Shown here piece by piece: positions 1-61,697 of a stretch of 64,000 bases of DNA. The position numbers and the translations under genes were made by a program. The stretch's first letter is position 1, and the number at the start of each line of letters is the position of its first letter. The notes beneath the pieces were generated by a model, which saw nothing but the letters and a program-made list of their open reading frames with translations, did no database searches and had not been told where the DNA came from. Origin of the DNA: Bacteroidales bacterium UBA4814 (lineage in GTDB: Bacteria > Bacteroidota > Bacteroidia > Bacteroidales > UBA7960); the NCBI GenBank assembly GCA_002402465.1, contig DHFW01000009.1:14553-78552 (forward strand). Direction: 5' to 3'.

Positions 1-100
1 CAAATTCTTCCTCCGCAAACTGTCTGCTTATGGAGGACGTTTCTGAGAAGTTGAGCTTACAGCCCAGGGTGTGGAAAGCAATCTTTTTTTTATTTCCCAT
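1..100 (-). CDS. N-terminal fragment of a radical-SAM methylthiotransferase (MiaB/MtaB-like), truncated by the window edge
   Basis: The reverse complement of 1-100 reads MGNKKKIAFHTLGCKLNFSETSSISRQFAEEEF. The AFxTLGCKxNxxE opening is typical of the N-terminal domain of MiaB/MtaB enzymes. Only 33 codons are visible. Confidence 0.5.
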   Translation of the reverse strand, partial: MGNKKKIAFHTLGCKLNFSETSSISRQFAEEEF

Positions 101-174
101 AAGGGTGCAAAGTTAATCAAAGCTTCCCTAAATCCGGCAAGCCCTCAAATCGCCTGATTGGTTTGCCCGTGAAA

Positions 175-1158
175 TTACTCCCCTTCAGGTAAAGCAAACC
201 TTTTTAGTTTTTCCGGCAGTTTGTCGAAGTAAGCGTTTGGCGCTGGGACCACTCCTGGTTGCCCGAGTTCTTCCAAAATTTTCAGGCCTTTTTCGTTGTC
301 GAGCAGAAAGGCGGCAAAGGCTTCGGCCAGTTCAATGTTTTGGGCTTTATGAGGTATGGTGAGGCCATAAATCATTGGCTGACCGATCTCGGTTATGGTG
401 GTTCCGGGGCTTGTTCCCAAGGTCTGAGTGCTTACCTGTGCATACCATTCTTCCAGTTCGGGGTCACCCAGGCTTAACTCGGCCGGAAGTCGCAGGTAAG
501 GAAGTTTATGCTGCTGCGCCACGCTCCGGTACAGGAAAATATAGTCGATCTGCCCGCTTTCCAACAGGGCAATCAGGTCGGTTTCCTTGGGGCGGATGTT
601 GCGCAGGTCCTTTTCAAGCAATTTTCCCGGAAGGGCATCATCCTCATAAAAAATACCAGCCAGTTTTGATGTAAATACGGCTCTGACGCCACAGGGGTCC
701 TGATCGGGGTCACTGCGGCCAATCTGCACCTCGGGGCGCAGCAAAATTTCAAACCAGTTATCCAGACTAATCTCGCCGGCATAGCGCGATTTTTCGGTAT
801 ACACGATGGCCATTTCGTTGGCGGCGAACTTCATGTTCCAGCTGGCGTTATCGGGAATGAGCATGTGTTCGATTACCATGTAATCGGCCGAAAGGTAAAG
901 GTCGCAGGGGGTGTCTAGTTCCATGATACGACGTGCGCCGGCCTTGCTGCCCCAGGCTTCGGTAAGTATGCGCACGTTGGGGTATTCGGCCTTGAAAGCC
1001 TCGCTGATGCGCTGCACCGGGTAGGTGAGGCTTCCGGCATGAATGATATGAAGGGTGCCTGAAAGCTCGCCGGCGCCATTGCCTTCAGGCTGCCCGTAAC
1101 GGCACGATGTAAGAAAAAGAAAAAATAGACCGGTAATGACAATAAGCAGTTTTTTCAT
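175..1158 (-). CDS. wtpA: WtpA/ModA-class tungstate/molybdate periplasmic binding lipoprotein, with no adjacent ABC permease or ATPase
   Basis: 327 aa ORF with a lipoprotein signal (LFLTSC). It carries HIIHAGSLTYP, DLYLSADY and DPDQDPCGVRAV motifs that match my recollection of archaeal/bacterial WtpA oxyanion-binding proteins. The next gene downstream on the minus strand is the unrelated mtaB-like gene. Confidence 0.7.
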   Translation of the reverse strand: MKKLLIVITGLFFLFLTSCRYGQPEGNGAGELSGTLHIIHAGSLTYPVQRISEAFKAEYPNVRILTEAWGSKAGARRIMELDTPCDLYLSADYMVIEHMLIPDNASWNMKFAANEMAIVYTEKSRYAGEISLDNWFEILLRPEVQIGRSDPDQDPCGVRAVFTSKLAGIFYEDDALPGKLLEKDLRNIRPKETDLIALLESGQIDYIFLYRSVAQQHKLPYLRLPAELSLGDPELEEWYAQVSTQTLGTSPGTTITEIGQPMIYGLTIPHKAQNIELAEAFAAFLLDNEKGLKILEELGQPGVVPAPNAYFDKLPEKLKRFALPEGE

Positions 1159-1264
1159 GTGATTTTTTTATTAAAGTTACTAATTCCCCGTTAACACACA
1201 ACGACCACCGGGAGTAAGGAGCTCGCCGGTGGCCTGTTGCAACGGTTAAAAAAAGGAGAAGTGA

Positions 1265-3556
1265 TCAGAAAACAAATCTGATTTCTGCGGTAATCATTCT
1301 TCCGGGAGCTATTACATTACGCGAGTCAACAAAGTCGGTGTCGAAAAGGTTATGCACCATAACGGCAGCCGAAAAGCCCCGGTAAATTTTACTTTGTATC
1401 TGCAAGTCAACACTCGAGTAGGATTCGATCAATTCAGTATTGGCATCGTTGAGCCACTGGGCGTCCTTGTAATTGTAGGTAGCGTAGAGGCTAAACCATT
1501 TGTTTTGCCAGTTCAGTCCTGCGTTAAAAAGGTTTCTGGGCTGGTAAACCAGTTCGTTGCCTTCCAAAGCCAGGTCTTCATTGGGGTCAAGTACTTTGTA
1601 CTCCAGTATTTCGGTATCGGTAAACGCCCAGGCAGCGTGTAAGGCCAGGCTGCGGCTGATCTGATAGTTGGCGGCAAGTTCGGTGCCGAAAATTTCAACT
1701 TTTCCGATGTTATCTTTTTTGCGGATAGGGCGCATGCGATTGTTCATTAGCAACGAGTCGCCGGTTGAAATGTATGCATGGTAGTCGCTTCCTGTGGCAT
1801 AATATATCGTGGGCGACACTGTGAGGCCCTTCACGGGGAACAAGTCGGACCCCAGCTCGATATTATCCACATATTCGGGCTCGAGGTAAGGGTTGGCGAT
1901 TTTCATACCGCCCGAAATGCGGCCGGTGCGGCACATGTCGTCGAGTACCGGCGCTCTGAAACCACGGCTGTAGCCGGCAAACACACGGTAAGCGCCTTCG
2001 TTGTAATACTGCACCGACAGCCTGGGGCTGATAGCGCCCCAGGAAGCATCTTCCAGGTCGCCATCAAAATTTTGCAGGAAAGCAGTTTCGCTGGTTGGAT
2101 CGAGCACTCTGAAGGCGCCATCATAAAAGCTGGCAAAATCGTAGCGCAAGCCGGCAAGGATACGCCAAGGCCCCTGGCCCGGGTTATATTCATCCTGGAT
2201 AAACAAGCCGAACTGGTTCATTTTGCCCAAGTTGAGCACCTGGTCGGAGGAGGTCAAATAAATGTCGGCCCCATCCACGGCCCCGTGCCTGATGTCGAGC
2301 CCGCCCAGCAGCGAGTGGACTGAAGCCAGGTTGAGGTTGAGGCTGCTGAAAAGCCCCAAATCGGTGCGGATCGACTCCACATCGTAGCGGGTTAGCTGCG
2401 CGCTTCTTACGCTTTCGCGGATGTTCTGGTAGTTTTCGCGCTGGCCGTAAGCGGTCAGGTTCAGGCTCATTGCTTCCGAAAACTTACCGGTGTAATTAAT
2501 GCTTCCGTTCAGTGCTTCGTAGTTGTTGAACGAACCTTCGGGTGCGGCCATTTCAAAGCCTTCGTATTGCGATCCGGTACCGCGTTTGCCGTTGTAAAAG
2601 GCCAGGCCGCCTTCAAGCAGGTGGTTGTCAGAAAACAGGTAACCCATTCGCCCCGAAGCACAGTATTCATCAAGAAAGGAAGCAATGGTAAATTCATCAA
2701 TTTCGTCCTGTGGAGCGGTAATATAGCCATCGCTCTGGCGGTAAAAACCGCTGGTGCGCCAGAACATTTTGCCGCTGCGGCCAGAAAAATTGAGATTGGT
2801 GCGGCTGGTGCCGAAGGTGCCTATCGACTGCCTTATGGCTCCTTGAAGGGGTTGGGTTGGAATGCCACTGATAAAGTTTATGACGCCACCCATGGCATTG
2901 CCTCCGTGAATGGACGAGCCCGGCCCTTTGAGCACCTCTATCTTTTCGATGTCCAGGGCATCAATGGCGTTCCAGTTTACCGAACCCCCATCGGTTTTGT
3001 TCAATGGAACCCCATCTTGCATCACCAAAATGCGGCCTTGTTCATTGCTCATGCCGCGCATGGAAACGTTGGCCGACGACAAGAAAGATGCTCCACGGCT
3101 TACATTAAGGCCTGGCAAGCTTTTGAGGTAATCATCGGCCGACAGGGCAGGGGTGGCCTCTACACGGGCTTTGTCAACAACATCCAGCCTCAGTGGCACC
3201 TCGTAAAGCTCGCGACTGGTGCGCGTACCGGTAACCACCACTTCGGGCATAAGTCCGCTGGACGGGGTTAAAATTATTTCAAGCGTGCCCGGCTGGGTGC
3301 CTACATTTACTTTTGTGGTTTTGGTTTCGTAGCCCACAAAGCGAACTTCCAGATGGTAATCGCCCGGCTGGCTCAATCGCAGTTCAAAACTTCCGTTGCT
3401 GGCACTCACCGTTCCCTGATTTGTTTCCCTTACCATAACGGTGGCTCCGGGAAGGGTTTGCCCGCTATTATCCTTTACAACGCCACGAAGGCTAACCTGC
3501 GCAAACAGCGACTGAGCGCTAAAAAGAAAAACAAAAAGTAAATAACTGAACCTCAT
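1265..3556 (-). CDS. TonB-dependent outer-membrane receptor with an N-terminal carboxypeptidase-regulatory-like domain
   Basis: 763 aa with a signal peptide. It has a CarboxypepD_reg-like segment (VSLRGVVKDNSGQTLPGATVMV...GYETK) and plug motifs (IEKIEVLKGPGSSIHGGNAMGGVINFIS). The beta-barrel C-terminus ends in an aromatic residue (EIRFVF). No SusD partner is present. Confidence 0.85.
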   Translation of the reverse strand: MRFSYLLFVFLFSAQSLFAQVSLRGVVKDNSGQTLPGATVMVRETNQGTVSASNGSFELRLSQPGDYHLEVRFVGYETKTTKVNVGTQPGTLEIILTPSSGLMPEVVVTGTRTSRELYEVPLRLDVVDKARVEATPALSADDYLKSLPGLNVSRGASFLSSANVSMRGMSNEQGRILVMQDGVPLNKTDGGSVNWNAIDALDIEKIEVLKGPGSSIHGGNAMGGVINFISGIPTQPLQGAIRQSIGTFGTSRTNLNFSGRSGKMFWRTSGFYRQSDGYITAPQDEIDEFTIASFLDEYCASGRMGYLFSDNHLLEGGLAFYNGKRGTGSQYEGFEMAAPEGSFNNYEALNGSINYTGKFSEAMSLNLTAYGQRENYQNIRESVRSAQLTRYDVESIRTDLGLFSSLNLNLASVHSLLGGLDIRHGAVDGADIYLTSSDQVLNLGKMNQFGLFIQDEYNPGQGPWRILAGLRYDFASFYDGAFRVLDPTSETAFLQNFDGDLEDASWGAISPRLSVQYYNEGAYRVFAGYSRGFRAPVLDDMCRTGRISGGMKIANPYLEPEYVDNIELGSDLFPVKGLTVSPTIYYATGSDYHAYISTGDSLLMNNRMRPIRKKDNIGKVEIFGTELAANYQISRSLALHAAWAFTDTEILEYKVLDPNEDLALEGNELVYQPRNLFNAGLNWQNKWFSLYATYNYKDAQWLNDANTELIESYSSVDLQIQSKIYRGFSAAVMVHNLFDTDFVDSRNVIAPGRMITAEIRFVF

Positions 3557-3626
3557 GATTTTAACAATTTTAGAAAATAGACTTTTTAATTATTGAAGCG
3601 AGTTGTAAATTTTACATATCGGGTTG

Positions 3627-3652
3627 CAAAGATAGCGTTATGAAAATAACGC
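3627..3652 (-). promoter_or_regulatory. Putative promoter (-7 box TATCTTTG on the minus strand, 3627-3634) abutted by the inverted repeat GCGTTAT-N4-ATAACGC (3635-3652); candidate ModE-type operator of the TBDR-wtpA operon
   Basis: Read directly. The plus strand is caaagata|gcgttatgaaaataacgc. The arms are a perfect 7-bp inverted repeat and resemble the CGnTAT...ATAnCG outer arms of the E. coli ModE operator. The site lies 71-96 nt upstream of the TBDR start codon. Confidence 0.45.
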
Positions 3653-3671
3653 ATAACGGTTTTCAAAAAAA

Positions 3672-4052
3672 TTATTTGGGTTTATGGATGGAGTTTAGTT
3701 CGTCGAGCAACTGTTGAAAAATGCTTTTTACCGAAGGCTCAAATTCGTGGTACACCTTATCGAAAAACTCTACGATTTTTTCACCCTGGGGGGTCAGGGT
3801 AGTTTGTCCGCCTTCGGCACCCCCACGTGTTTTTTCTATTATGGGGAAGCCAAGTTTTTCTTCAATGTTTTTCAGCTTGGTCCAGGTTTGGCGGTAGGTA
3901 AGGCCCATGCTTTCCACTGCAGCCTTTAGCGAGCCGGTTTCCTTAATGGCTTTCAGTAATTTCCACTTGCCTTCGCCCAGAATGCTCACATGGGAGTCGG
4001 TTTCGACCCATATTTTGTAGTTCAGCTTTAATTTTTCGTAATTTTTTGACAT
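3672..4052 (-). CDS. ModE N-terminal-domain-like winged-helix transcriptional regulator, short form without Mop/TOBE domains
   Basis: 126 aa. The stretch GEGKWKLLKAIKETGSLKAAVESMGLTYRQTWTKLKNIEEKLGFPIIEKTRGGAEGGQTTLTPQGEKI follows the ModE_N pattern (GSI..AA...G.SY..AW......GG..GGG..LT..G). The protein ends before any molybdate-binding Mop domain could occur. Confidence 0.7.
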   Translation of the reverse strand: MSKNYEKLKLNYKIWVETDSHVSILGEGKWKLLKAIKETGSLKAAVESMGLTYRQTWTKLKNIEEKLGFPIIEKTRGGAEGGQTTLTPQGEKIVEFFDKVYHEFEPSVKSIFQQLLDELNSIHKPK

Positions 4053-4099
4053 GGCAAAGGCACAAAAGTTTTTACAATGTTAAATAAAATTGGCCATAT

Positions 4100-4123
4100 C
4101 GTTTGAAAATAACTTTAATTTTG
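4100..4123 (+). promoter_or_regulatory. Putative promoter (-7 box TAATTTTG, 4116-4123) preceded by CGTTTGAAAATAAC (4100-4113), a near copy of the operator-like element at 3635-3652
   Basis: Read directly. CGTTTGAAAATAAC differs from CGTTATGAAAATAAC at 3636-3650 by one missing base. Both elements sit immediately upstream of a TAnnTTTG box. Confidence 0.4.
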
Positions 4124-4172
4124 CCACCGACTTGCAATGAATTTCATATCGATATTTTCAATTAAAACCATT

Positions 4173-5246
4173 ATGATTCAACTAAAAAAAACCGCTGTGG
4201 CCTGGTTAATCCTTTTGGTATTTTTTATGGGAAGCTGCAAAAGTATTTTGCCCGATGCCCTTACTGGTGCTTCACTGCCTTTTGACCCCAATGGCAACAG
4301 CCTCTACCATCAAACCAAAGAAACAGCCATGGAGCCCGGCACCCTCGAAGTTTTTGGCGAGGTGGCCGAACCGGGTAAGGTGAATCTGAAAAAATTCTAC
4401 AAGCGCGAAGTCGTAATGCGCGAAGCAAATTTGCTCGAAAACGGCGAGTATGAGTTTGTGGGTGCCTACCGCTACATTGGCTATTCGCTCTTCGACTTGT
4501 TGCATCCTTTCAATCACCAGAAAAAAAATGTGGAAGAATTCCGGCCGGCCATCGACTTGTATGTGGTCATTGAAAACGACAAAGGCGAGTCGGTAACCCT
4601 GAGCTGGGGCGAGATTTACTTTACCGCCAATCCACATCAAATATTGATCGCCACCGAATCAGCACCTATCAAACCCTACCATGTTGATGTAGATTACCCG
4701 GTTGAGAAGCAATGGAAGCTGGTTGTGGCCACTGATCTTTACGCCTCGAGGCAACTGATCAATCCGGTAAAAATCACCGTGAAGTCATTCGATAAGAAGA
4801 ATTATGTCATTAACCGCGACCTCGACCCGCTTTATTCGCCCGAAGTGGTAATCAGCCTTGCGGATACTTTGACCTTTTCTGTAAACGAATACACGGCCGA
4901 AATGAACGACCTGGAACACCGCACCATTTTTTACGGCATGGGCATGGGCCATCATCCCAATCCAATTTTCAGCGGAACCTCGCTTACCAAGGTCTTCTCA
5001 AAGCATATCGACCCCTTGAATCATCATTTGTTCAGGCACGGCCTGGTTTGCTTTGCCGGACTCGATGGTTACCGCACCGTGTTCAGTTATTCAGAGCTGT
5101 TTAACCGTCTCGATCAGAACCCTGCCATGCTAATCGTTACTGAAGAAGGTAGCGATGGCGGGCGCTACCGCATATTCCATCCGCTCGATTTCTACGCCGA
5201 CCGCTCGGTAAAATCTTTGGCAGAAATGTACATTTTTACTGAATAG
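4173..5246 (+). CDS. Lipoprotein with two tandem sulfite-oxidase-fold (molybdopterin-oxidoreductase-like) domains
   Basis: The ORF track starts at 4137. The internal Met at 4173 gives a clean lipoprotein signal (MIQLKKTAVAWLILLVFFMGSC). Two segments follow the Oxidored_molyb pattern. The first is YIGYSLFDLL...DLYVVIENDKGESVTLSWGEIY...WKLVVATDLYASRQLINPVKITV. The second is FSGTSLTKVF...LVCFAGLDGYRTVFSYSELF...PAMLIVTEEG...GGRYRIFHPLDFYADRSVKSLAEMYI. Confidence 0.45.
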   Translation: MIQLKKTAVAWLILLVFFMGSCKSILPDALTGASLPFDPNGNSLYHQTKETAMEPGTLEVFGEVAEPGKVNLKKFYKREVVMREANLLENGEYEFVGAYRYIGYSLFDLLHPFNHQKKNVEEFRPAIDLYVVIENDKGESVTLSWGEIYFTANPHQILIATESAPIKPYHVDVDYPVEKQWKLVVATDLYASRQLINPVKITVKSFDKKNYVINRDLDPLYSPEVVISLADTLTFSVNEYTAEMNDLEHRTIFYGMGMGHHPNPIFSGTSLTKVFSKHIDPLNHHLFRHGLVCFAGLDGYRTVFSYSELFNRLDQNPAMLIVTEEGSDGGRYRIFHPLDFYADRSVKSLAEMYIFTE

Positions 5247-5299
5247 TTTAGGAAGTAAACTAATTTTGTTGCTTTCTTTCCGGATAGTTGTAATATGCT

Positions 5300-6262
5300 A
5301 TGAAAGACAACAAGTTTGTTTTTGCCCTTTTCCTGGTCATGTTGCTTGCCTGGATTTTTCCGGGTCCGGGCGCGCCTGATAGTATTATTCCATTAAAAAC
5401 CATTGGCAGCATTGGTATTTCACTTATCTTCTTTTTTTACGGGCTGAAGCTGAGTCCTGAAAAGCTTCGGGCGGGTTTGAGCAACTTCAGGCTTCATTTA
5501 CTGGTACAACTGTCAACCTTTTTGTTGTTCCCACTGATTGTCTTGCCTTTTTTTCCGCTGATGAAAACCGAAAGTCAGCAAACGCTCTGGCTGGCCTTGT
5601 TTTTTCTTGCTGCTTTGCCATCAACGGTTTCCTCTTCGGTGGTGCTCACTTCACTGGCAAAAGGGAATGTGCCTTCAGCCATTTTCAATGCCAGTATTTC
5701 AGGCATTATTGGCATTATGGTTACTCCCCTTTGGATGGGCTTGTTTATACATGCAAAATCAGGCGACTTCGACTTCTCTCAAATCTATTTTAAACTTTTC
5801 CTTGAGATTATTTTGCCTGTAATCATTGGTTTGTTGCTCAGGCCGTGGTTGCACCAATTTACCATTCGATTTAGCCGGCAACTTACTCTTTTCGACAAGT
5901 TGGTCATTTTGCTGATCGTTTACCGGAGCTTTGCCGCTTCTTTTCATGCAGGATATTTTGAAGGAATAAGCTGGCCCGACTTGCTTATCCTTCTTGCACT
6001 GGTAATCGGTCTTTTTTTCCTGGTTTATGGAATCATTCTTTCATTAACCAGGGCTCTTGGATTTAATCGCGAAGACCGCATTACCGCCCTTTTTTGTGGT
6101 TCGCAAAAATCGCTGGTGCATGGCAGCGTTTTTTCCAATGTTTTGTTTGCCAATATGTCTGTAGCAGGCATCATGCTTCTGCCGTTAATGATTTTTCACG
6201 CGTTCCAGATTTTTGCGATCAGCGTGATTTCTTCGCGTTACGCAAAGAAGGAGAGAGCTTGA
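5300..6262 (+). CDS. Bile acid:sodium symporter (BASS/SBF-like, YfeH-type) family permease
   Basis: 320 aa polytopic membrane protein. Its N-terminus (FVFALFLVMLLAWIFPGPGA...GISLIFFFYGLKLSPEKLRAGL) and overall layout match SBF-like transporters. Confidence 0.7.
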   Translation: MKDNKFVFALFLVMLLAWIFPGPGAPDSIIPLKTIGSIGISLIFFFYGLKLSPEKLRAGLSNFRLHLLVQLSTFLLFPLIVLPFFPLMKTESQQTLWLALFFLAALPSTVSSSVVLTSLAKGNVPSAIFNASISGIIGIMVTPLWMGLFIHAKSGDFDFSQIYFKLFLEIILPVIIGLLLRPWLHQFTIRFSRQLTLFDKLVILLIVYRSFAASFHAGYFEGISWPDLLILLALVIGLFFLVYGIILSLTRALGFNREDRITALFCGSQKSLVHGSVFSNVLFANMSVAGIMLLPLMIFHAFQIFAISVISSRYAKKERA

Positions 6263-6771
6263 GGTTCAATCCTGTCCTTTAGGATAAAAAAATGCAGGTT
6301 ATTTTTTAAAAAACTTGCATGGTTCAAAACCAATGCATATTTTAGCAAACGTAATTTAAACTAAAACCATTGCAAGTGCAAATTGTGCCCATAACCGTAT
6401 CAAAAGGATGCCGGCACAGCAAAGTTTTGGCATTTACCCCCCTCCCCCCCCTCCTCTGCTAATAGCCTGATAATAAAGATTTCGCATTATTGCAGCCCAG
6501 TCATCCAAACCTTTTTGGTTGATGGGGTTAAGAAAAAAACTCATCTGATTTGGAAGCTGGTTAAGACCAATTTGGCATTGGTAACCCTATGCCGGCGTTG
6601 TGCGTTCCCCGGTGTAGGGCATTAAAAAGGTTTTTGAAACCCTGAAGGGACACCGTGCCAACCATAACACGGTCATGCAGGCTGATCTACCATATTAATG
6701 AAGCCGCAGGCACATTTGTAACCAATGCATTTTTTTGCAAAAAAATTTTTAACTTTTTAATTATTTAAGAG

Positions 6772-7029
6772 ATGAAAAAGCATTTACTTAGAATTACAGC
6801 CGTGCTTACTATTGCCCTTTTCACATTGGTTTTGTTTGGTAACGCTAAACTTGCGGCAAATTGCCCAGGAGGTACCATTTTGGTACATGTAACAGGTCAA
6901 GATATTGAAGAAGAACCAAATGGAGATAAAGTTTTCTGGCAAGCAGGTGGACATTTGGTTTATTGCCCATCAACTGGTATGGTAATAGAGGACCACTCAT
7001 ATTGGTACATATCAATGATCGTTCAATAA
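6772..7029 (+). CDS. Small secreted protein of unknown function (85 aa, about 55 aa mature, two Cys)
   Basis: Signal peptide MKKHLLRITAVLTIALFTLVLFGNAKLAA. The mature part contains NCPGG and YCPSTG. It is followed by a strong intrinsic terminator. I recognise no family. Confidence 0.55.
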   Translation: MKKHLLRITAVLTIALFTLVLFGNAKLAANCPGGTILVHVTGQDIEEEPNGDKVFWQAGGHLVYCPSTGMVIEDHSYWYISMIVQ

Positions 7030-7065
7030 ATAATGACCATTCTTACTGTTCTTTGAGACTCTTAT

Positions 7066-7113
7066 AAACGGCACAAAGCAGGCAATTTTTATCTCCTTTG
7101 TGCCGTTTTTTTT
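7066..7113 (+). terminator. Rho-independent terminator after the 85-aa gene
   Basis: A perfect 13-bp stem, aaacggcacaaag (7066-7078) pairing with ctttgtgccgttt (7096-7108), followed by a T-run. Confidence 0.8.
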
Positions 7114-7134
7114 AAACTGTGAAAAATCTTAAAT

Positions 7135-8187
7135 ATGAAAAAGATGCATTTTTTTAAACTTATCTTAATTGCATTCTTGCTAGGTTCAGCCATTTCCTGC
7201 TCATTTTTCCAAAACCGGAGTGAGAAACCCTTTGTGCTCGATCTTGACGATGTGGTCCAGACCGCCGGCAATCAACCTTTCTTTGCAAACTCTGACACCA
7301 TTATTCTTGATCCAGGAAGTCAGTTAATTCCTTCTTTCGATATTGTAAAGGAACACCATGGCAATTTTTATATATTAGACAAGAGGCAAAAGGCCATTTT
7401 CGTTTTTGATGAAGCCGGTCAATTGGCTTACCAAATTGCCAGGGAGGGCAGAGGCCCCGGAGAATACCTAAATATTTTCGATTTCTTTTTAATGGACGGC
7501 CAACTTCATATTGTTACACAACTTGGCAGGGTTTTGATTTACGACAAGGATTTGTTTATAGCCGAGTATGATCTTCCTTTCACACCAATGTATTGCGAAT
7601 ACCTTGGCGAAAATAAAGTGGCTTTTCAAAATGTTTATGAAGATTTCTCTTATAAATACAGGCTGGTTGTTTATTGTCTTGAAAGAAATGAGATAATTGA
7701 TTCGATGCCAACCGAGAAAGGTGTTGACGATGATTCTTATCCATTCTGGCGGCAAAGACACCTTTGGCCTAGCGGAAACGTTGTGCTTTATAATAATGAC
7801 TACTCGAAAGATGTCTTCATGATAACAAATAGTGGAATAGAACATCTTTTTTCAATGACCGGAGTTATTCTCCACACCGCCGATGAAATTATGGAATTCA
7901 ACAACAACCCAACCTTAAGGCAGGGGAAAAACGACAAAGTGGATTTCTTAAAAGGCTTGACCATGCATGGTAATGTGGTTTCCTTTGGTTTTCAGGTTAA
8001 CTACCTTCCATACACGGTTTTTCTTAATCTAAACGATAATACTTACAAAAGTTTTGAGGCAATAAGACCCCCATATTTCGCAGCCACGGCTCAAGGTGCG
8101 TATGGATTTTGGCCTCGCATGGCACCGCGCCCCGGGCAACCCATGGTCATTATTAATTATACCTTCGAACCACATTTACTTGACTGA
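7135..8187 (+). CDS. 6-bladed beta-propeller lipoprotein (BF3164/TolB-like propeller family)
   Basis: 350 aa with a lipobox (LLGSAISC). It has the GRGPGEY motif and the FYILDKRQKAIFVFDEAGQ blade pattern characteristic of the Bacteroidales 6-bladed propeller family. Confidence 0.6.
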   Translation: MKKMHFFKLILIAFLLGSAISCSFFQNRSEKPFVLDLDDVVQTAGNQPFFANSDTIILDPGSQLIPSFDIVKEHHGNFYILDKRQKAIFVFDEAGQLAYQIAREGRGPGEYLNIFDFFLMDGQLHIVTQLGRVLIYDKDLFIAEYDLPFTPMYCEYLGENKVAFQNVYEDFSYKYRLVVYCLERNEIIDSMPTEKGVDDDSYPFWRQRHLWPSGNVVLYNNDYSKDVFMITNSGIEHLFSMTGVILHTADEIMEFNNNPTLRQGKNDKVDFLKGLTMHGNVVSFGFQVNYLPYTVFLNLNDNTYKSFEAIRPPYFAATAQGAYGFWPRMAPRPGQPMVIINYTFEPHLLD

Positions 8188-13267: not shown

Positions 13268-14212
13268 ATGAAAAAATTATCGGTTATTGCTTTTGGTGGC
13301 AACGCCCTGCTTCGTGGAGACCAGATTGGCACCATCGACGAGCAGGAACAGAATGTATATGAAACTTGCCAGCACCTGGTAGGTTTGATCAAAACCGGAT
13401 ACGATTTGGTAATCGGTCACGGTAACGGTCCGCAGGTGGGTAATGTGCTTTTGCAACACGAAGCCGGCCACCGCATTTATGGCCTGCCCAAACAGCCCAT
13501 CGACTTCTGTGTTGCCGAAACCCAGGGTTCAATAGGTTTTATGATTGAACAGCAGTTGCGCAACGTGCTTGCCGAGCATGGCATTAAGCGCAATATTGTT
13601 ACCCTGGTTACCCAGGTAATGGTCGACAAGAACGATCCGGCCTTTCAGAATCCCACCAAACCCGTGGGCCCGTTTTACACCGCGGAGGAAATGGATGCCC
13701 TGAAAAAAGAACATCCCGAGTGGGTGTTTCACGAAGATCCGCGCAAGCGTGGCTGGAGAAGGGTAGTGGCTTCGCCAAGGCCCATCAGCATTCCCAACTG
13801 GGAAGCAGTGGAGAAACTGGCACGCACCGGAACCATTGTGATTACCGTGGGTGGTGGTGGAATACCTGCCTATACTGATGAAAAAGGTAAAATGATTGGT
13901 ATAGATGCCGTAATCGACAAAGATCTGGCTTCTTCCTTGCTGGCCAATAAAATAAAAGCTGACGAGTTTTGCATCCTGACCGATGTGCCCAATGTGTTCA
14001 TCAATTTCCACAAGCCCGGCGAGCAAAAGCTGGAGCGGGTTTCCATTCCTGAAATCAAAAAGCACCTGGCCGACGGGCAGTTTACTGAGGGCAGCATGGC
14101 TCCCAAAGTAAGGGCTTGCATCGAATTCGTTGAGAATGGCGGCAAGGAAGCCATAATTACCGAAGCCACCCAACTCGAAACCCCCGGCGCAGGAACAGTG
14201 ATATATGGATGA
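13268..14212 (+). CDS. arcC: Carbamate kinase
   Basis: 314 aa. The N-terminus VIAFGGNALLRGDQ...GHGNGPQVGNVLL is diagnostic of carbamate kinases. Confidence 0.9.
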   Translation: MKKLSVIAFGGNALLRGDQIGTIDEQEQNVYETCQHLVGLIKTGYDLVIGHGNGPQVGNVLLQHEAGHRIYGLPKQPIDFCVAETQGSIGFMIEQQLRNVLAEHGIKRNIVTLVTQVMVDKNDPAFQNPTKPVGPFYTAEEMDALKKEHPEWVFHEDPRKRGWRRVVASPRPISIPNWEAVEKLARTGTIVITVGGGGIPAYTDEKGKMIGIDAVIDKDLASSLLANKIKADEFCILTDVPNVFINFHKPGEQKLERVSIPEIKKHLADGQFTEGSMAPKVRACIEFVENGGKEAIITEATQLETPGAGTVIYG

Positions 14213-14356
14213 TTTTTAAGGGATAAAAGGGTAAAGGTTAAAGCCTGCCTGCCGGCAGGCAGGGAAAGTAACTTGAAACCTGAAATCCCAAATCCCAAAC
14301 TCCAAACCTCGAACTCCGAACATATTTTTTCAATTAACCATTAATAATTATTTACC

Positions 14357-15358
14357 ATGGCTTACAATCTTAGAAACAGAAGTTTTTTAAAGCTGCTTGA
14401 TTTCACTCCGAAAGAAATTAAATTTTTGCTCGATTTATCCTTGGATCTCAAAAAGGCCAAGTATGGCGGTTATGAGCAGCAGCGCCTTAAGGGAAAGAAC
14501 ATTGCCCTGATCTTTGAAAAGGACAGCACCCGTACGCGCTGCGCTTTTGAGGTGGCTGCCTTCGACCAGGGTGCCCAGGTAACCTACCTCGGACCCAGCG
14601 GCAGCCAGATCGGCAAAAAGGAATCGATGAAGGACACTGCCCGCGTACTCGGACGAATGTATGATGGCATTGAATACCGCGGCTATGCTCAAAAAACCGT
14701 TGAAGAACTGGCTGAGTATTCAGGTGTTCCGGTTTGGAACGGTCTTACCAACGAGTTCCACCCCACCCAGATTTTGGCTGACTTCCTCACCATGATAGAG
14801 CACAGCGACAAACCCCTGAACCAAATCAAATTCTGCTACCTGGGCGATGCCCGCAACAATATGGGCAACTCACTGCTGGTTGGCGCCGCAAAAATGGGCA
14901 TGGACTTCCGCGCTGCAGCGCCCAAGTCGGTTCAGCCCAGCGAAGAGCTGGTGGCCCAGTGCCGCGAAATTGCCAAGGAAACCGGCGCAAAGATCACCAT
15001 TACCGACAATGTGGCCGAAGCAGTAAAAGACTGCGATTTCCTCTATACCGACGTATGGGTGTCGATGGGCGAGCCCGCTGAGGTTTGGGTAGAGCGCATC
15101 AACCTTTTGAAGCCTTACCAGGTGAATATGGATGTGATCAAAAAAACCGGCAACCCCAAGGTGAAATTCCTGCACTGCCTGCCTGCATTCCACAACCGCG
15201 AAACCACCATTGGAGAGGATATCTTCCAGAAGTTTGGTTTGGATGGCATGGAAGTGGTTGAAGAAGTTTTCGAATCAGAACACTCCATTGTATTCGATCA
15301 GGCCGAAAATCGCCTGCATACCATTAAAGCCGTTATGGTTGCTACTTTGGGTAGTTAA
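14357..15358 (+). CDS. argF: Ornithine carbamoyltransferase, classical ArgI/ArcB type
   Basis: 333 aa. It has [21 protein letters not shown] and HCLPAFH motifs. It is nearly colinear with E. coli ArgI as I recall it (FLKLLDFTP...[13 protein letters not shown]...[20 protein letters not shown]). Confidence 0.9.
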
Positions 15359-59496: not shown

Positions 59497-60885
59497 ATGA
59501 GAAAAACGGAAAACCCTGGTAAACTGATGTTTTTTGCTTTTATTTTGGGCCTTTCTATGTTGATAACCAACGGAGTCTTTGCCCAGAGCGAAGAGAGCCA
59601 ATCTGAGCCACCAGTAAAAACAGGCTGGAGGCTTGGCGGAATTTTGCCCACCATTACCTTCGACAGTGACCTCGGGTTTCAGTACGGGGCTCTAGTCAAT
59701 CTTTTCAACTACGGTGATGGCTCGCGATTTCCGCGCTACGATCATTCGCTGTATTTCGAGTTGTCGCGCTTTACCAAAGGAAGCGGATACAACCGCTTCT
59801 TTTACGACTCCGATCAGTTGGTAATGGGCATCAGAACCACCTTCGACCTGAGTTATATTACCGACCCGCTTTACAGCTTTCATGGGTTTAACGGCTATGA
59901 GTCGGCCTACTGGCCCGAATTGGTCGACCGTGACTTCGAAAACGGCGAGTTTGATTACCTGAGCCGGGCCTTTTATGCCCACGACCGGAAAATGTTTCGT
60001 ACAAAAATCGACCTGCAGGGAAAGCTAATTGGCGAGAACCTGAACTGGGTTTCCGGTTTTGAAGTTTATAATTTTTCCGTTGGGTCGGTTGACATTGACA
60101 AACTGAACAAAGGCAAGGAAGGGGATGACCTTTTGCCTGAGGTAGACGGTTTATACGATCGCTATGTGGCATGGGAACTCATTGAAGAGGGCGAAGCTGA
60201 AGGCGGCTGGGTGAACTACCTGAAGGCCGGCGTTTCGTTTGATACCCGCGACAACGAACCCAACCCCATGAGTGGTGTATGGTCGGAAGCCGTAATTATG
60301 ATGGCACCCGGCTTTATGGTTACCGGCGACTACGGGCACGCCAAACTTTCCCTTACTCACCGCCAGTATTTTACCCTGATTGAAGACGACCTTTCGTTTG
60401 CGTATCGTCTGGGGCTGCAAAAAACCATTGCCGGGAAAGCACCTTTTTATGTGCAGCCTATTCTGGTTACCTCTTTTCTGAGAGGAAACACCAACGAGGG
60501 CCTGGGCGGCTCGAAAAGCCTGCGCGGAATCCTTAGAAACCGCATTGTGGGCGACGGCATTGCCATGGGCAACCTGGAATTGCGCTGGAAATTCGTACGT
60601 TTTAATATTGGTGCAACCAACGTGTACCTGGGCCTGAATGGCTTTGTGGATGGTGGCCTGGTATTTTCTGCTATTGAAATTGACATGAATAGCGTGACCC
60701 TGGAAGAAGGAGAAACCCTCAGGATGTTCTTCGACGAAGAAAAGGATGCCCTGCATATGAGTGCCGGCGCAGGCTTGCGTATTGCCATAAACCAAAACTT
60801 TATTGTGGCTGTCGATTTTGGAAAAGCCTTCGACAAGCGCGATGGCAATACCGGACTTTATATCGGCCTGAATTACCTTTTTTAG
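59497..60885 (+). CDS. Omp85/BamA-TamA-family outer-membrane beta-barrel protein (no obvious POTRA repeats)
   Basis: 462 aa with a signal peptide. It has FDTRDNEPNPMSGVW and GGSKSLRG motifs, and the C-terminus ends LYIGLNYLF, as expected for surface-antigen (D15) barrels. Confidence 0.6.
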   Translation: MRKTENPGKLMFFAFILGLSMLITNGVFAQSEESQSEPPVKTGWRLGGILPTITFDSDLGFQYGALVNLFNYGDGSRFPRYDHSLYFELSRFTKGSGYNRFFYDSDQLVMGIRTTFDLSYITDPLYSFHGFNGYESAYWPELVDRDFENGEFDYLSRAFYAHDRKMFRTKIDLQGKLIGENLNWVSGFEVYNFSVGSVDIDKLNKGKEGDDLLPEVDGLYDRYVAWELIEEGEAEGGWVNYLKAGVSFDTRDNEPNPMSGVWSEAVIMMAPGFMVTGDYGHAKLSLTHRQYFTLIEDDLSFAYRLGLQKTIAGKAPFYVQPILVTSFLRGNTNEGLGGSKSLRGILRNRIVGDGIAMGNLELRWKFVRFNIGATNVYLGLNGFVDGGLVFSAIEIDMNSVTLEEGETLRMFFDEEKDALHMSAGAGLRIAINQNFIVAVDFGKAFDKRDGNTGLYIGLNYLF

Positions 60886-61040
60886 GATTCAGTAGCAAAC
60901 TGCCTGTTTTGTGATTTTAAAAACCCACTGTTATCAATTACTTTGGTAACTTTGGGCCTTTGGGGACGGCCCGAAAAAATGAGCGGCCTGCTGCAACTTC
61001 GTGTTGCTCCTGCTTTGGTAGAAATCAACTTAAATGGCTT

Positions 61041-61697
61041 ATGATTAAAACAAAAAATATTCATAAATCATACGGCAATCTGGAAGTGCTGAAAGGTATC
61101 AGTATCGAGATTGCTCCCAGCGAAATAGTGTCTATTGTAGGTGCTTCGGGTGCTGGTAAAACCACTTTGCTTCATATTATCGGTACTCTCGACCGTTACG
61201 ACCAGGGCGAAGTTATTATCAACAATCAGAATATTAAAGGTTTTAACGACCAGAAGCTGTCTGATTTTCGCAACCGCAACATTGGCTTCGTGTTTCAGTT
61301 TCATCATCTGCTGCCCGAGTTCACTGCCCTGGAGAATGTTTGTATCCCTGCCTTTATTGCCGGGAAGGGGCGGGGCGAAGCCGAAAAGCGGGCAAAGGAA
61401 TTGCTCGACATGCTGGGGCTGGCCGGGCGCCTGGAGCATAAACCCTCAGAACTTTCGGGTGGAGAGCAGCAGCGGGTTGCTGTAGCCCGCGCACTGGTTA
61501 ATAACCCGGCTGTGGTGCTGGCCGATGAACCCAGCGGAAACCTCGATTCCAAATCATCGGAAGAGCTACACCGCCTTTTCTTCTCCCTGCGCGAAAACCT
61601 GGGTCAAACTTTCGTGATTGTTACCCACAATACCGAGTTGGCCAATATGGCCGACCGCAAACTTACCATTAAGGATGGAATGATAGGCAATAATTAA
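61041..61697 (+). CDS. lolD: LolD-like ABC transporter ATP-binding protein (lipoprotein-release/MacB-type)
   Basis: It has Walker A (GASGAGKTT), the signature [15 protein letters not shown] and Walker B ([11 protein letters not shown]). The start is the ATG at 61041 ([12 protein letters not shown]), not the track's 60960. Confidence 0.8.

Follow-up and report, generated by a model that had tools for sequence, protein, structure and literature searches.

A stretch of 64 kb on contig DHFW01000009.1 of the uncultured Bacteroidales bacterium UBA4814 (the window, by which the whole of this stretch is meant) carries near its start a divergent gene cluster that is read here, with a probability of about 0.62, as a ModE-controlled, TonB-dependent module for the acquisition of tungstate or molybdate. 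The cluster comprises a short ModE-type regulator, a TonB-dependent receptor (TBDR) and a WtpA-class substrate-binding protein (SBP) on one strand, and a lipoprotein of an unnamed family, termed P4, on the other, followed by an SBF-like permease of the BASS superfamily. The module is real, conserved and TonB-linked, and apparently undescribed so far. The five open reading frames (ORFs) delimited in a first-pass annotation of the sequence are all present, with hundreds to thousands of homologues each. The comparison drew on about 170 related loci, which were anchored on the SBP, the TBDR or P4 and carry L-numbers (P-numbers denote P4-family proteins and k-numbers gene clusters); the locus of the window, L001, extends about 10 kb past it, so that about 74 kb were examined there.

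The promoters of the TBDR and P4 genes carry three palindromes that are predicted ModE-type operators, and exactly three sites of this type occur in the whole window, all of them at this locus. Beside P4 in the loci arranged like the window, the palindrome reads CGATATGCA-N5/6-TGCATATCG, and its core, GTTATG-N9/10-CATAAC, is about the same as the ModE box of M. acetivorans, RTTATGT-N8-RCATAAY, which was validated by electrophoretic mobility shift assay (PMC12327845). A regular expression for the box found 36 matches in the 1.24 Mb of the SBP-anchored set, compared with 6.2 in shuffled sequences, and a weight matrix found 41 in the same set, compared with about 8. This matrix was trained on the SBP-anchored set only, and the P4-anchored metagenome loci, which thus served as independent validation, gave 75 matches as against 0–5 in shuffles. 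The enrichment over shuffles is 6- to 25-fold. In the P4-anchored loci, the boxes precede P4 (23), the regulator (21), the TBDR (15), k3-TBDR-P4 operons (13), genes for an NAD-dependent aldehyde dehydrogenase (ALDH; 5), the SBP (2) and aldehyde:ferredoxin oxidoreductase (AOR; 1).

The −7 promoter element of Bacteroidota has the consensus TAnnTTTG, and the predicted operators of the window flank or follow such elements of the TBDR and P4, suggesting repression via promoter occlusion. Together with the conservation of the arrangement, this placement bears out the earlier assignment of the TBDR to a molybdenum/tungsten (W/Mo) locus. A lone ModE half-site, CATATCG, at 4094–4100, about 45 bp from the start codon of the regulator, could add to autoregulation. 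A scan for sigma-70 promoters and terminators, a model unsuited to Bacteroidota, performed no better than chance, and its one "terminator", at 3635–3652, is ModE-type box 1.

An alignment search with the SBP against species-representative genomes returned 80 loci, all from metagenome-assembled genomes (MAGs), in which neighbouring genes were named via ORF clustering and Pfam; most are from Bacteroidales, including many sediment bins, and a few are from Lentisphaerota. The related loci show P4 divergent from regulator-TBDR-SBP, as in the window (layout A); ThiF, AOR, WtpA-WtpB-WtpC and MoeA-MoaA-MoaC (layout B); P4 within WtpA/WtpBC operons, Lentisphaerota included (layout C); the SBP alone among housekeeping genes (layout D); or an SBF gene divergent from the SBP with no other cluster gene (layout E). 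The window-type layout is found in L004, L006, L008, L015, L018, L033 and L067, and again in L089, L091, L093, L096, L101, L106, L122, L125, L129 and L147; the SBP of L006 has 93% identity. The synteny of TBDR, WtpA and ModE-like regulator, which the first-pass annotation had proposed for checking, is borne out for the set of TBDR, regulator and P4, in part with WtpA, over several dozen species-level MAGs and contigs from metagenomes.

Three of the relatives carry the components of uptake through both membranes at one locus. L122 has the window layout, but P4 is followed there by WtpB-WtpC; in L163 the genes for the SBP, k3, k77, TBDR, P4, WtpB, WtpC, MoeA, MoaA and MoaC lie in series; and L088, on a 4.6-Mb contig and with a TBDR of 38% identity, has the regulator, two ALDH genes, two k3 genes, TBDR, P4, WtpA, WtpB and WtpC, with several boxes. 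Operons of the form wtpA-P4-wtpBC-moeA-moaA-moaC exist elsewhere (moeA-moaA-moaC with P4 in L157–L167). Because L088, L122 and L163 encode TBDR, P4, WtpA and WtpBC together, the canonical ABC step is part of the system in relatives, and a pathway from the outer membrane through the periplasm to an ABC importer is suggested. The description of the SBP as an orphan thus stands for the window in that no wtpBC occurs in the roughly 74 kb, but it does not extend to the families involved, since the same SBP and TBDR families and P4 co-occur with WtpB/WtpC in these three loci.

The SBP is assigned to the WtpA class of tungstate/molybdate binders, with acidic ligands of the octahedral type. At 272.9 bits it clears the cutoff (242.75) of TIGR03730, the NCBIfam equivalog model for WtpA, whereas it stays under that of a second model, NF003196 (312 bits, cutoff 355); it is of the SBP_bac_11/WtpA type. 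Its best match in the PDB is the A. fulgidus ModA/WtpA protein (2ONK/2ONS, E 6e-65), which serves as the binding component of ModB2C2A. The acidic ligands D154 (in DPCG) and E192 (in PKET) align to those of the A. fulgidus protein and are invariant across 29 homologues. Two such acidic residues are the mark of octahedral WtpA-type as opposed to tetrahedral ModA-type binding (PMC11350598). With the WtpA cutoff passed and both ligands kept, the identification as a WtpA-like oxyanion-binding lipoprotein made in the first pass agrees with the sequence. The recurrent link of this SBP family to the tungsten enzyme AOR and to biosynthesis of the molybdenum cofactor (Moco) ties the family to tungsten, and the WtpA class and the AOR linkage point to tungstate as the likelier physiological substrate. 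A gene of about 719 aa upstream of many SBPs (cluster c5) was considered as a second type of TBDR and rejected, as Pfam identifies it as AOR.

In a neighbour-joining tree, the SBPs fall into a clade I, which is linked to ABC genes, and a clade II, to which the SBP of the window belongs together with the isolated SBPs, the SBF loci and every TBDR-linked locus. The idea that the TBDR-linked SBPs form a clade of their own was rejected, as they are scattered inside the non-ABC clade II. An acidic surface-export signal (LES) is not evident on the SBP or on P4, and the SBPs, lipoproteins in either clade, resemble one another. In L012–L014, L016, L017, L019–L027 and L031, an isolated clade-II wtpA lies between ornithine carbamoyltransferase/amino-acid-kinase genes and mtaB, with no TBDR gene, ABC genes or ModE box, and the same carbamoyltransferase and kinase genes are found in the window at 13268–15358. 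In one sub-clade (L004 at 1–5678, L042, L056 and L058), the SBP gene is followed on its 3' side by genes for two PQQ_2 beta-propeller proteins, an NHL-repeat protein and ferredoxin-like proteins.

The TBDR matches PF07715 (1.3e-23) and PF00593 (1e-40) in Pfam, and the sequence PEVVVTGTR (EVVVTGT) ahead of its plug is one that we take to be a TonB-box-like motif. Every substrate-specific NCBIfam model stays below its cutoff. The orthologue group reaches down to 46% identity, after which identity falls to 40% or less, and its members recurrently adjoin P4, the regulator and ModE boxes; in L087, for example, the genes for the TBDR (48% identity) and P4 are divergent, and a box lies in the space between. 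Another group of P4-linked TBDRs, the second (36–40% identity), occurs in k3-k3-TBDR-P4 operons with ModE boxes ahead of the first k3 gene. The boxes, and the WtpABC genes co-encoded in L088, L122 and L163, place both TBDR groups in a predicted W/Mo regulon, of which complete outer-to-inner-membrane systems are predicted to exist.

The k3-k3-TBDR-P4 operons are found in L088 (6355–7963), L095, L102, L109–L111, L128, L131–L137, L143–L146, L151 and L163. Their k3 genes encode paralogous lipoproteins with InlB-type B-repeats, one of which begins C-K-E-D-P, like a surface-export signal, and the proteins of cluster k77 have a sorting tail of the type IX secretion system (T9SS); the window has no k3 or k77 genes. 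In L086 (3746–6667 and 10447–12861), a TBDR orthologue of 46% identity is divergent from a cluster for a molybdoenzyme of the xanthine dehydrogenase family, beside a second TBDR of 804 aa; P4 and a ModE box were not detected at this locus.

P4 itself gave no sequence match in Pfam, NCBIfam or the PDB, even at E ≤ 10, and its family, of which 784 word-index matches were retrieved, none of them named, falls into 314 representatives at 50% clustering. The full-length AlphaFold2 (AF2) model has a predicted local distance difference test score (pLDDT) of 86.6 and a predicted template-modelling (TM) score, pTM, of 0.82; in a Foldseek search of the PDB, its only significant matches were the sulfite dehydrogenase SorA and chicken sulfite oxidase (E 8e-6 to 8e-4, global TM about 0.3). 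The C-terminal domain modelled alone (pLDDT 78.9) matches SorA (TMq 0.64) and PruR, the latter at TM 0.56–0.64 in both directions with about 15% identity. Distant homologues of P4 match the Pfam family Oxidored_molyb (PF00174) in both halves, suggesting that P4 has two SUOX-like domains; an internal repeat between the halves was not found by hhalign (probability 0.05), and a phmmer search of the PDB with the distant homologue P0439 gave no match. The word "tandem" is thus used here on the basis of the fold and of the Pfam matches of distant homologues, and the tandem molybdopterin-oxidoreductase-like domains claimed earlier stand at the level of fold and transitive homology, but not as a direct sequence match or a detectable repeat. 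The export signal is a Sec-type lipobox without a twin arginine, which rules out a Tat-exported Moco enzyme, and C293 is not kept in the distant homologues. An alternative ATG at 4137 lies inside box 3, whereas the Logan gene call begins at 4173, and because of the overlap with the box the latter is most likely the start of P4.

The non-redundant P4 loci with sufficient flanking sequence number 31; a TBDR adjoins P4 in 19 of them, ABC genes are present in 7, and about 6 lack both. In P0379 (623 aa), P4 and WtpA are truly fused, as the protein has a single lipobox and a second signal peptide is missing. From the synteny with TBDR and ABC genes, this fusion, the fold and the export signal, P4 is predicted to be a core periplasmic component of a W/Mo system, and it apparently represents a new family of accessory proteins. 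No recurring inner-membrane transporter was found 3' of P4 in the TBDR>P4 operons, where the neighbours include MacB-type exporters and methylmalonyl-CoA mutase, among others. In P0438, P0439, P0442, P0456, P0485, P0494 and P0497, a tandem Oxidored_molyb-like module stands N-terminal to a tetrapyrrole (corrin/porphyrin) methylase in proteins of about 590–620 aa, suggesting that the P4-like module is a portable ligand-binding unit.

The regulator passes PF00126 (HTH_1), and its nearest structures are 2IJL, a stand-alone ModE-N protein of 135 aa, and E. coli ModE. No Mop/TOBE domain was matched in it by Pfam or NCBIfam models, as had been proposed for this ModE-N-like protein of 126 aa; it scores below the cutoff of ModE_repress TIGR00637 (71 bits, cutoff 98.5). 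In the window-type loci L004 (11191–11442, 80 aa) and L033 (an ORF of 75 aa), a stand-alone TOBE/Mop protein is encoded right beside P4, and this protein could be a trans-acting metal sensor, or a molbindin, for the Mop-less regulator. ALDH genes repeatedly adjoin the gene for the ModE-like regulator, and a box lies in the promoter region common to both (L035 at 7631–7653, L088 at 2714–2737, L157 and L162–L164), and also near P4 or the SBP in L010, L041, L043, L046 and L067. Control of ALDH by the box could act as a tungsten-sparing switch, in which a tungsten-independent ALDH backs up AOR.

Table 1. Annotated features at the start of the window, in order of position (an empty strand cell marks a feature given without strand)
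Feature	Positions	Strand	Basis or remark
MtaB/MiaB-like radical-SAM gene, 5' end	1..100	-	Translation MGNKKKIAFHTLGCKLNFSE...; UPF0004 and Radical_SAM; locus boundary, not a member
WtpA-class tungstate/molybdate-binding lipoprotein (predicted), 327 aa, lipobox LTSC	175..1158	-	TIGR03730; PDB 2ONK/2ONS
TBDR-WtpA spacer, 106 bp	1159..1264	-	Hairpin CCACCGG..CCGGTGG and near-consensus -7-like element TAACTTTA; ModE box absent
TonB-dependent receptor, 763 aa	1265..3556	-	CarboxypepD_reg N-terminal domain, Plug, 22-strand-type barrel
Predicted ModE-type box 2, CGAGTTGTAAATTTTACATATCG	3599..3621		Just downstream of the TBDR -7 element
-7 element of the TBDR, TATCTTTG	3627..3634	-	Read from sequence; between boxes 1 and 2
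Predicted ModE-type box 1, CGTTATGAAAATAACGCATAACG	3636..3658		Regular expression and weight matrix
Mop-less ModE N-domain regulator, 126 aa	3672..4052	-	TIGR00637; PF00126; PDB 2IJL, 1O7L
-7-like element of P4, TAATTTTG	4116..4123	+	Box 3 follows
Predicted ModE-type box 3, CGACTTGCAATGAATTTCATATCG	4128..4151		Divergent regulator/P4 region; 76 bp from regulator start
P4, Sec/lipobox lipoprotein, two degenerate SUOX-fold (PruR-like) domains	4173..5246	+	AF2 model, Foldseek, synteny
-7-like element in the P4-SBF gap, TAATTTTG	5261..5268	+	Conserved in 7/7 P4>SBF loci
SBF-like (BASS superfamily) permease	5300..6262	+	PF13593; membership of the system doubtful

The following sequence of events is proposed for the module. 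When W/Mo is sufficient, the ModE-N regulator would occupy the three boxes and keep the TBDR and P4 genes off, and when W/Mo becomes scarce, it would leave them. The TBDR, energised by TonB, would then carry a W/Mo species, either the free oxyanion or a complexed form, over the outer membrane. In the periplasm, P4 and WtpA would capture the metal, hand it over or release it from its carrier, and WtpA would deliver it to an inner-membrane importer, which is most probably WtpBC encoded elsewhere in the genome, as it is at the locus itself in L088, L122 and L163.

Several observations weigh against this proposal. Tungstate and molybdate are small enough for porins, so that a TBDR is not obviously needed for them. 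The regulator, being under the ModE_repress cutoff, is also without a sensing domain, and genes for WtpB, WtpC, AOR, Moco biosynthesis or TOBE proteins are absent from the 64-kb window and from the additional 10 kb or so of L001; the sole ABC ATPase of the window (60960–61697) is LolD-like. The wtpA gene of the window probably has its own promoter and no ModE box, in line with many relatives, in which the TBDR-SBP gap holds a hairpin with a T-run followed by TAnnTTTG, and the SBP has its own promoter without a box. Among the clade-II loci, 22 of 40 have neither a TBDR nor ABC genes, many of these SBPs being isolated. P4 in turn is found with WtpABC and no nearby TBDR in L072, L079–L081 and L154–L168, and is in this sense independent of the TBDR. 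Lastly, the best NCBIfam similarity of the TBDR is to generic heme/siderophore receptor models, all of them below cutoff.

This last similarity, and the label "iron complex outer membrane receptor" that homologues of the TBDR bear in JGI records, would be expected if the genes were coincidental neighbours, i.e., if the TBDR were a receptor for iron, heme or another nutrient unrelated to Mo/W and P4 an unrelated lipoprotein. However, practically all window-type loci have ModE-type boxes directly beside the promoters of the TBDR and P4, elsewhere the same box stands before wtpA, AOR and ALDH genes, and synteny holds down to 38–46% identity, including single operons of TBDR, P4 and wtpABC, which makes mere coincidence highly improbable. 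Another explanation concerns what the TBDR imports, namely an organic W/Mo complex instead of the free oxyanion (pterin-bound as released molybdopterin or tungstopterin cofactor, bound to a catechol or metallophore, or a thiometalate), for which P4 would act as periplasmic receptor or release factor feeding WtpA. TBDR substrates typically exceed porin size, the modelled C-terminal domain of P4 is structurally closest to the PruR proteins, periplasmic pterin binders without Moco, P4 is fused to WtpA in P0379, and the genes of the second TBDR group are accompanied by others for surface lipoproteins and for a protein of the T9SS (k3, k77), as in the systems by which Bacteroidota capture complex ligands. 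On the other hand, organisms with P4 in moeA-moaA-moaC operons (L157–L167) synthesise the pterin for themselves and have to acquire the metal only, the surroundings of the loci showed no genes for metallophore biosynthesis, P4 also accompanies WtpABC where there is no TBDR, and fold similarity does not establish a ligand. Import of such a complex is accordingly regarded as quite unlikely.

The remaining alternative bears on the inner membrane. The permease is a full-length match to SBF_like PF13593 (1.4e-91, 307.5 bits, residues 1–313 of 313), just as its BASS/SBF-like identity had been given in the first pass, and it might have replaced WtpBC, with the WtpA-type SBP feeding a secondary transporter or working beside it. 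L122 has WtpB-WtpC precisely in the slot that the SBF-like gene holds in the window, L006–L008 and L090–L092; the SBF gene is still beside the SBP gene in L007/L090, which have no TBDR, and in L029/L034, which have no TBDR, P4 or regulator; no SBF-carrying locus has ABC genes; and wtpBC is absent from the 74 kb or so examined around the window. Yet all seven P4>SBF gaps have AAAC-TAAATTTG-TTGC in common, with a conserved −7-like element of the form TAnnTTTG and no ModE box, and in L029/L034 the order SBF..SBP..SDR..aminotransferase is kept without the P4-regulator-TBDR module and without boxes. This order is shared with unrelated housekeeping genes, and its persistence there suggests that the SBF-SBP adjacency may be neutral synteny. 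Moreover, no transporter of the inner membrane adjoins many of the TBDR-P4 modules, and SBF is confined to one shallow lineage and its sister. No record of an SBP-dependent BASS transporter, or of an oxyanion substrate of an SBF-like protein, was found in the literature searched, and comparison with tripartite TRAP/TTT systems gives no parallel, the SBP being of the SBP_bac_11/WtpA type and the membrane protein SBF_like, not DctP/TctC with DctQM/TctAB. Replacement of WtpBC by the permease is thus considered unlikely, and its earlier casting as a possible inner-membrane step is weakly supported, namely by the position it shares with WtpBC in L122.

A bolder extension of the ModE-controlled, TonB-dependent module is offered tentatively, as the less probable course. 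The TBDR and P4 may capture W/Mo species that lie beyond the reach of porins and WtpABC, either the oxyanion at ultra-trace level or a form bound to a pterin, thio ligand or chelator; P4 would then be the first periplasmic trafficking or release factor for W/Mo (or for a metal-pterin), acting upstream of WtpA, and the SBF-like permease may also replace WtpBC in the lineage of the window.

The next gene on the minus strand beyond wtpA was confirmed on the parent contig as the mtaB-like gene named in the first-pass annotation (UPF0004 and Radical_SAM). An Rfam scan of positions 1–8000 found no Moco riboswitch. There is no GC anomaly hinting at transfer, as the TBDR-SBP stretch falls inside the GC range of the window. 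At 59497–61697, unrelated to the locus, a gene for an Omp85-family outer-membrane protein is followed by the LolD-like ABC ATPase gene and then by ligA on the opposite strand.

The module resembles several described systems in part. With WtpABC (P. furiosus WtpA; the A. fulgidus ModA/WtpA-ModB2C2 complex, 2ONK) it shares the binding protein, which passes the WtpA model, is about 45% similar to the A. fulgidus protein with both acidic ligands, and has relatives encoded with WtpB (BPD_transp_1) and WtpC (ABC_tran and TOBE). However, the wtpA of the window is without wtpBC, encodes a lipoprotein and lies beside a TBDR gene; the bacterial clade has a TBDR and P4 in addition, neither of which belongs to the system described from archaea. 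Metal uptake that depends on TonB and is paired with a periplasmic binder and an ABC importer is known for zinc (ZnuD/ZnuABC), lanthanides (LutH with the lut ABC transporter) and vitamin B12 (BtuB/BtuFCD). A metal-responsive repressor, an energised receptor, a periplasmic binder and an ABC importer are common to these systems and the present one, the full set being encoded in L088, L122 and L163; in contrast, the substrate here would be an oxyanion metal (W/Mo), the regulator is of the ModE type, and a SUOX-fold lipoprotein is predicted as a core member. With the ModE regulons of E. coli and M. acetivorans the locus shares a probable ModE-N winged helix and a near-identical palindrome over the promoters of uptake genes, but it has no Mop/TOBE sensing domain (a stand-alone TOBE protein occurs only in some relatives, L004 and L033), and the TBDR, P4 and ALDH would be new regulon content.

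For P4, the closest described counterpart is PruR (7KP2, 7KOS), a Sec-exported protein with a cysteine-less, degenerate SUOX fold, whose ligands are small pterins and which docks to a partner in the membrane (PMC11194511). P4 too is Sec-exported and is predicted to be a cofactor-less protein of degenerate SUOX fold in the periplasm, and PruR is the best structural match for its modelled C-terminal domain. PruR differs in being a single domain with a PW motif, encoded in an operon with a DcpA-type diguanylate cyclase/phosphodiesterase (DGC/PDE) and acting in c-di-GMP signalling, whereas P4 has two domains, a lipid anchor and W/Mo transport genes as neighbours; no DcpA-like neighbour of P4 was found in about 100 loci. 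A dedicated outer-membrane step in molybdate acquisition with a ModA-type binder is outlined in PMC11734730, which cites work on a ModA of P. aeruginosa secreted by the type VI secretion system (T6SS) and the outer-membrane protein IcmP. As summarised there, that mechanism relies on a secreted SBP and IcmP, with no TonB receptor and no P4, in another phylum.

To our knowledge, what textbooks and comparative genomics have to say on Mo/W uptake ends with the three ABC systems ModABC, TupABC and WtpABC and does not cover the outer membrane. The main survey never mentions TonB (PMC6147048). No TBDR for a W/Mo oxyanion is described in the literature searched, which likewise holds no TBDR linked to WtpA/ModA and no P4, in keeping with the earlier claim that the architecture is uncharacterised. 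The host organisms depend on AOR and other tungsten enzymes, and their record names point to sediments, digesters and wetlands as habitats, in which the supply of W/Mo can be limited by its speciation. In these anaerobic Bacteroidales, a ModE-controlled TBDR with a dedicated accessory lipoprotein would extend W/Mo homeostasis by an energised step at the outer membrane and by a new protein family. The analysis further yields a testable operator model for the ModE regulons of Bacteroidota, a functional context for the unannotated P4 family of about 300 clusters, and, for the cofactor-less SUOX/PruR fold, what would be its second role in biology.

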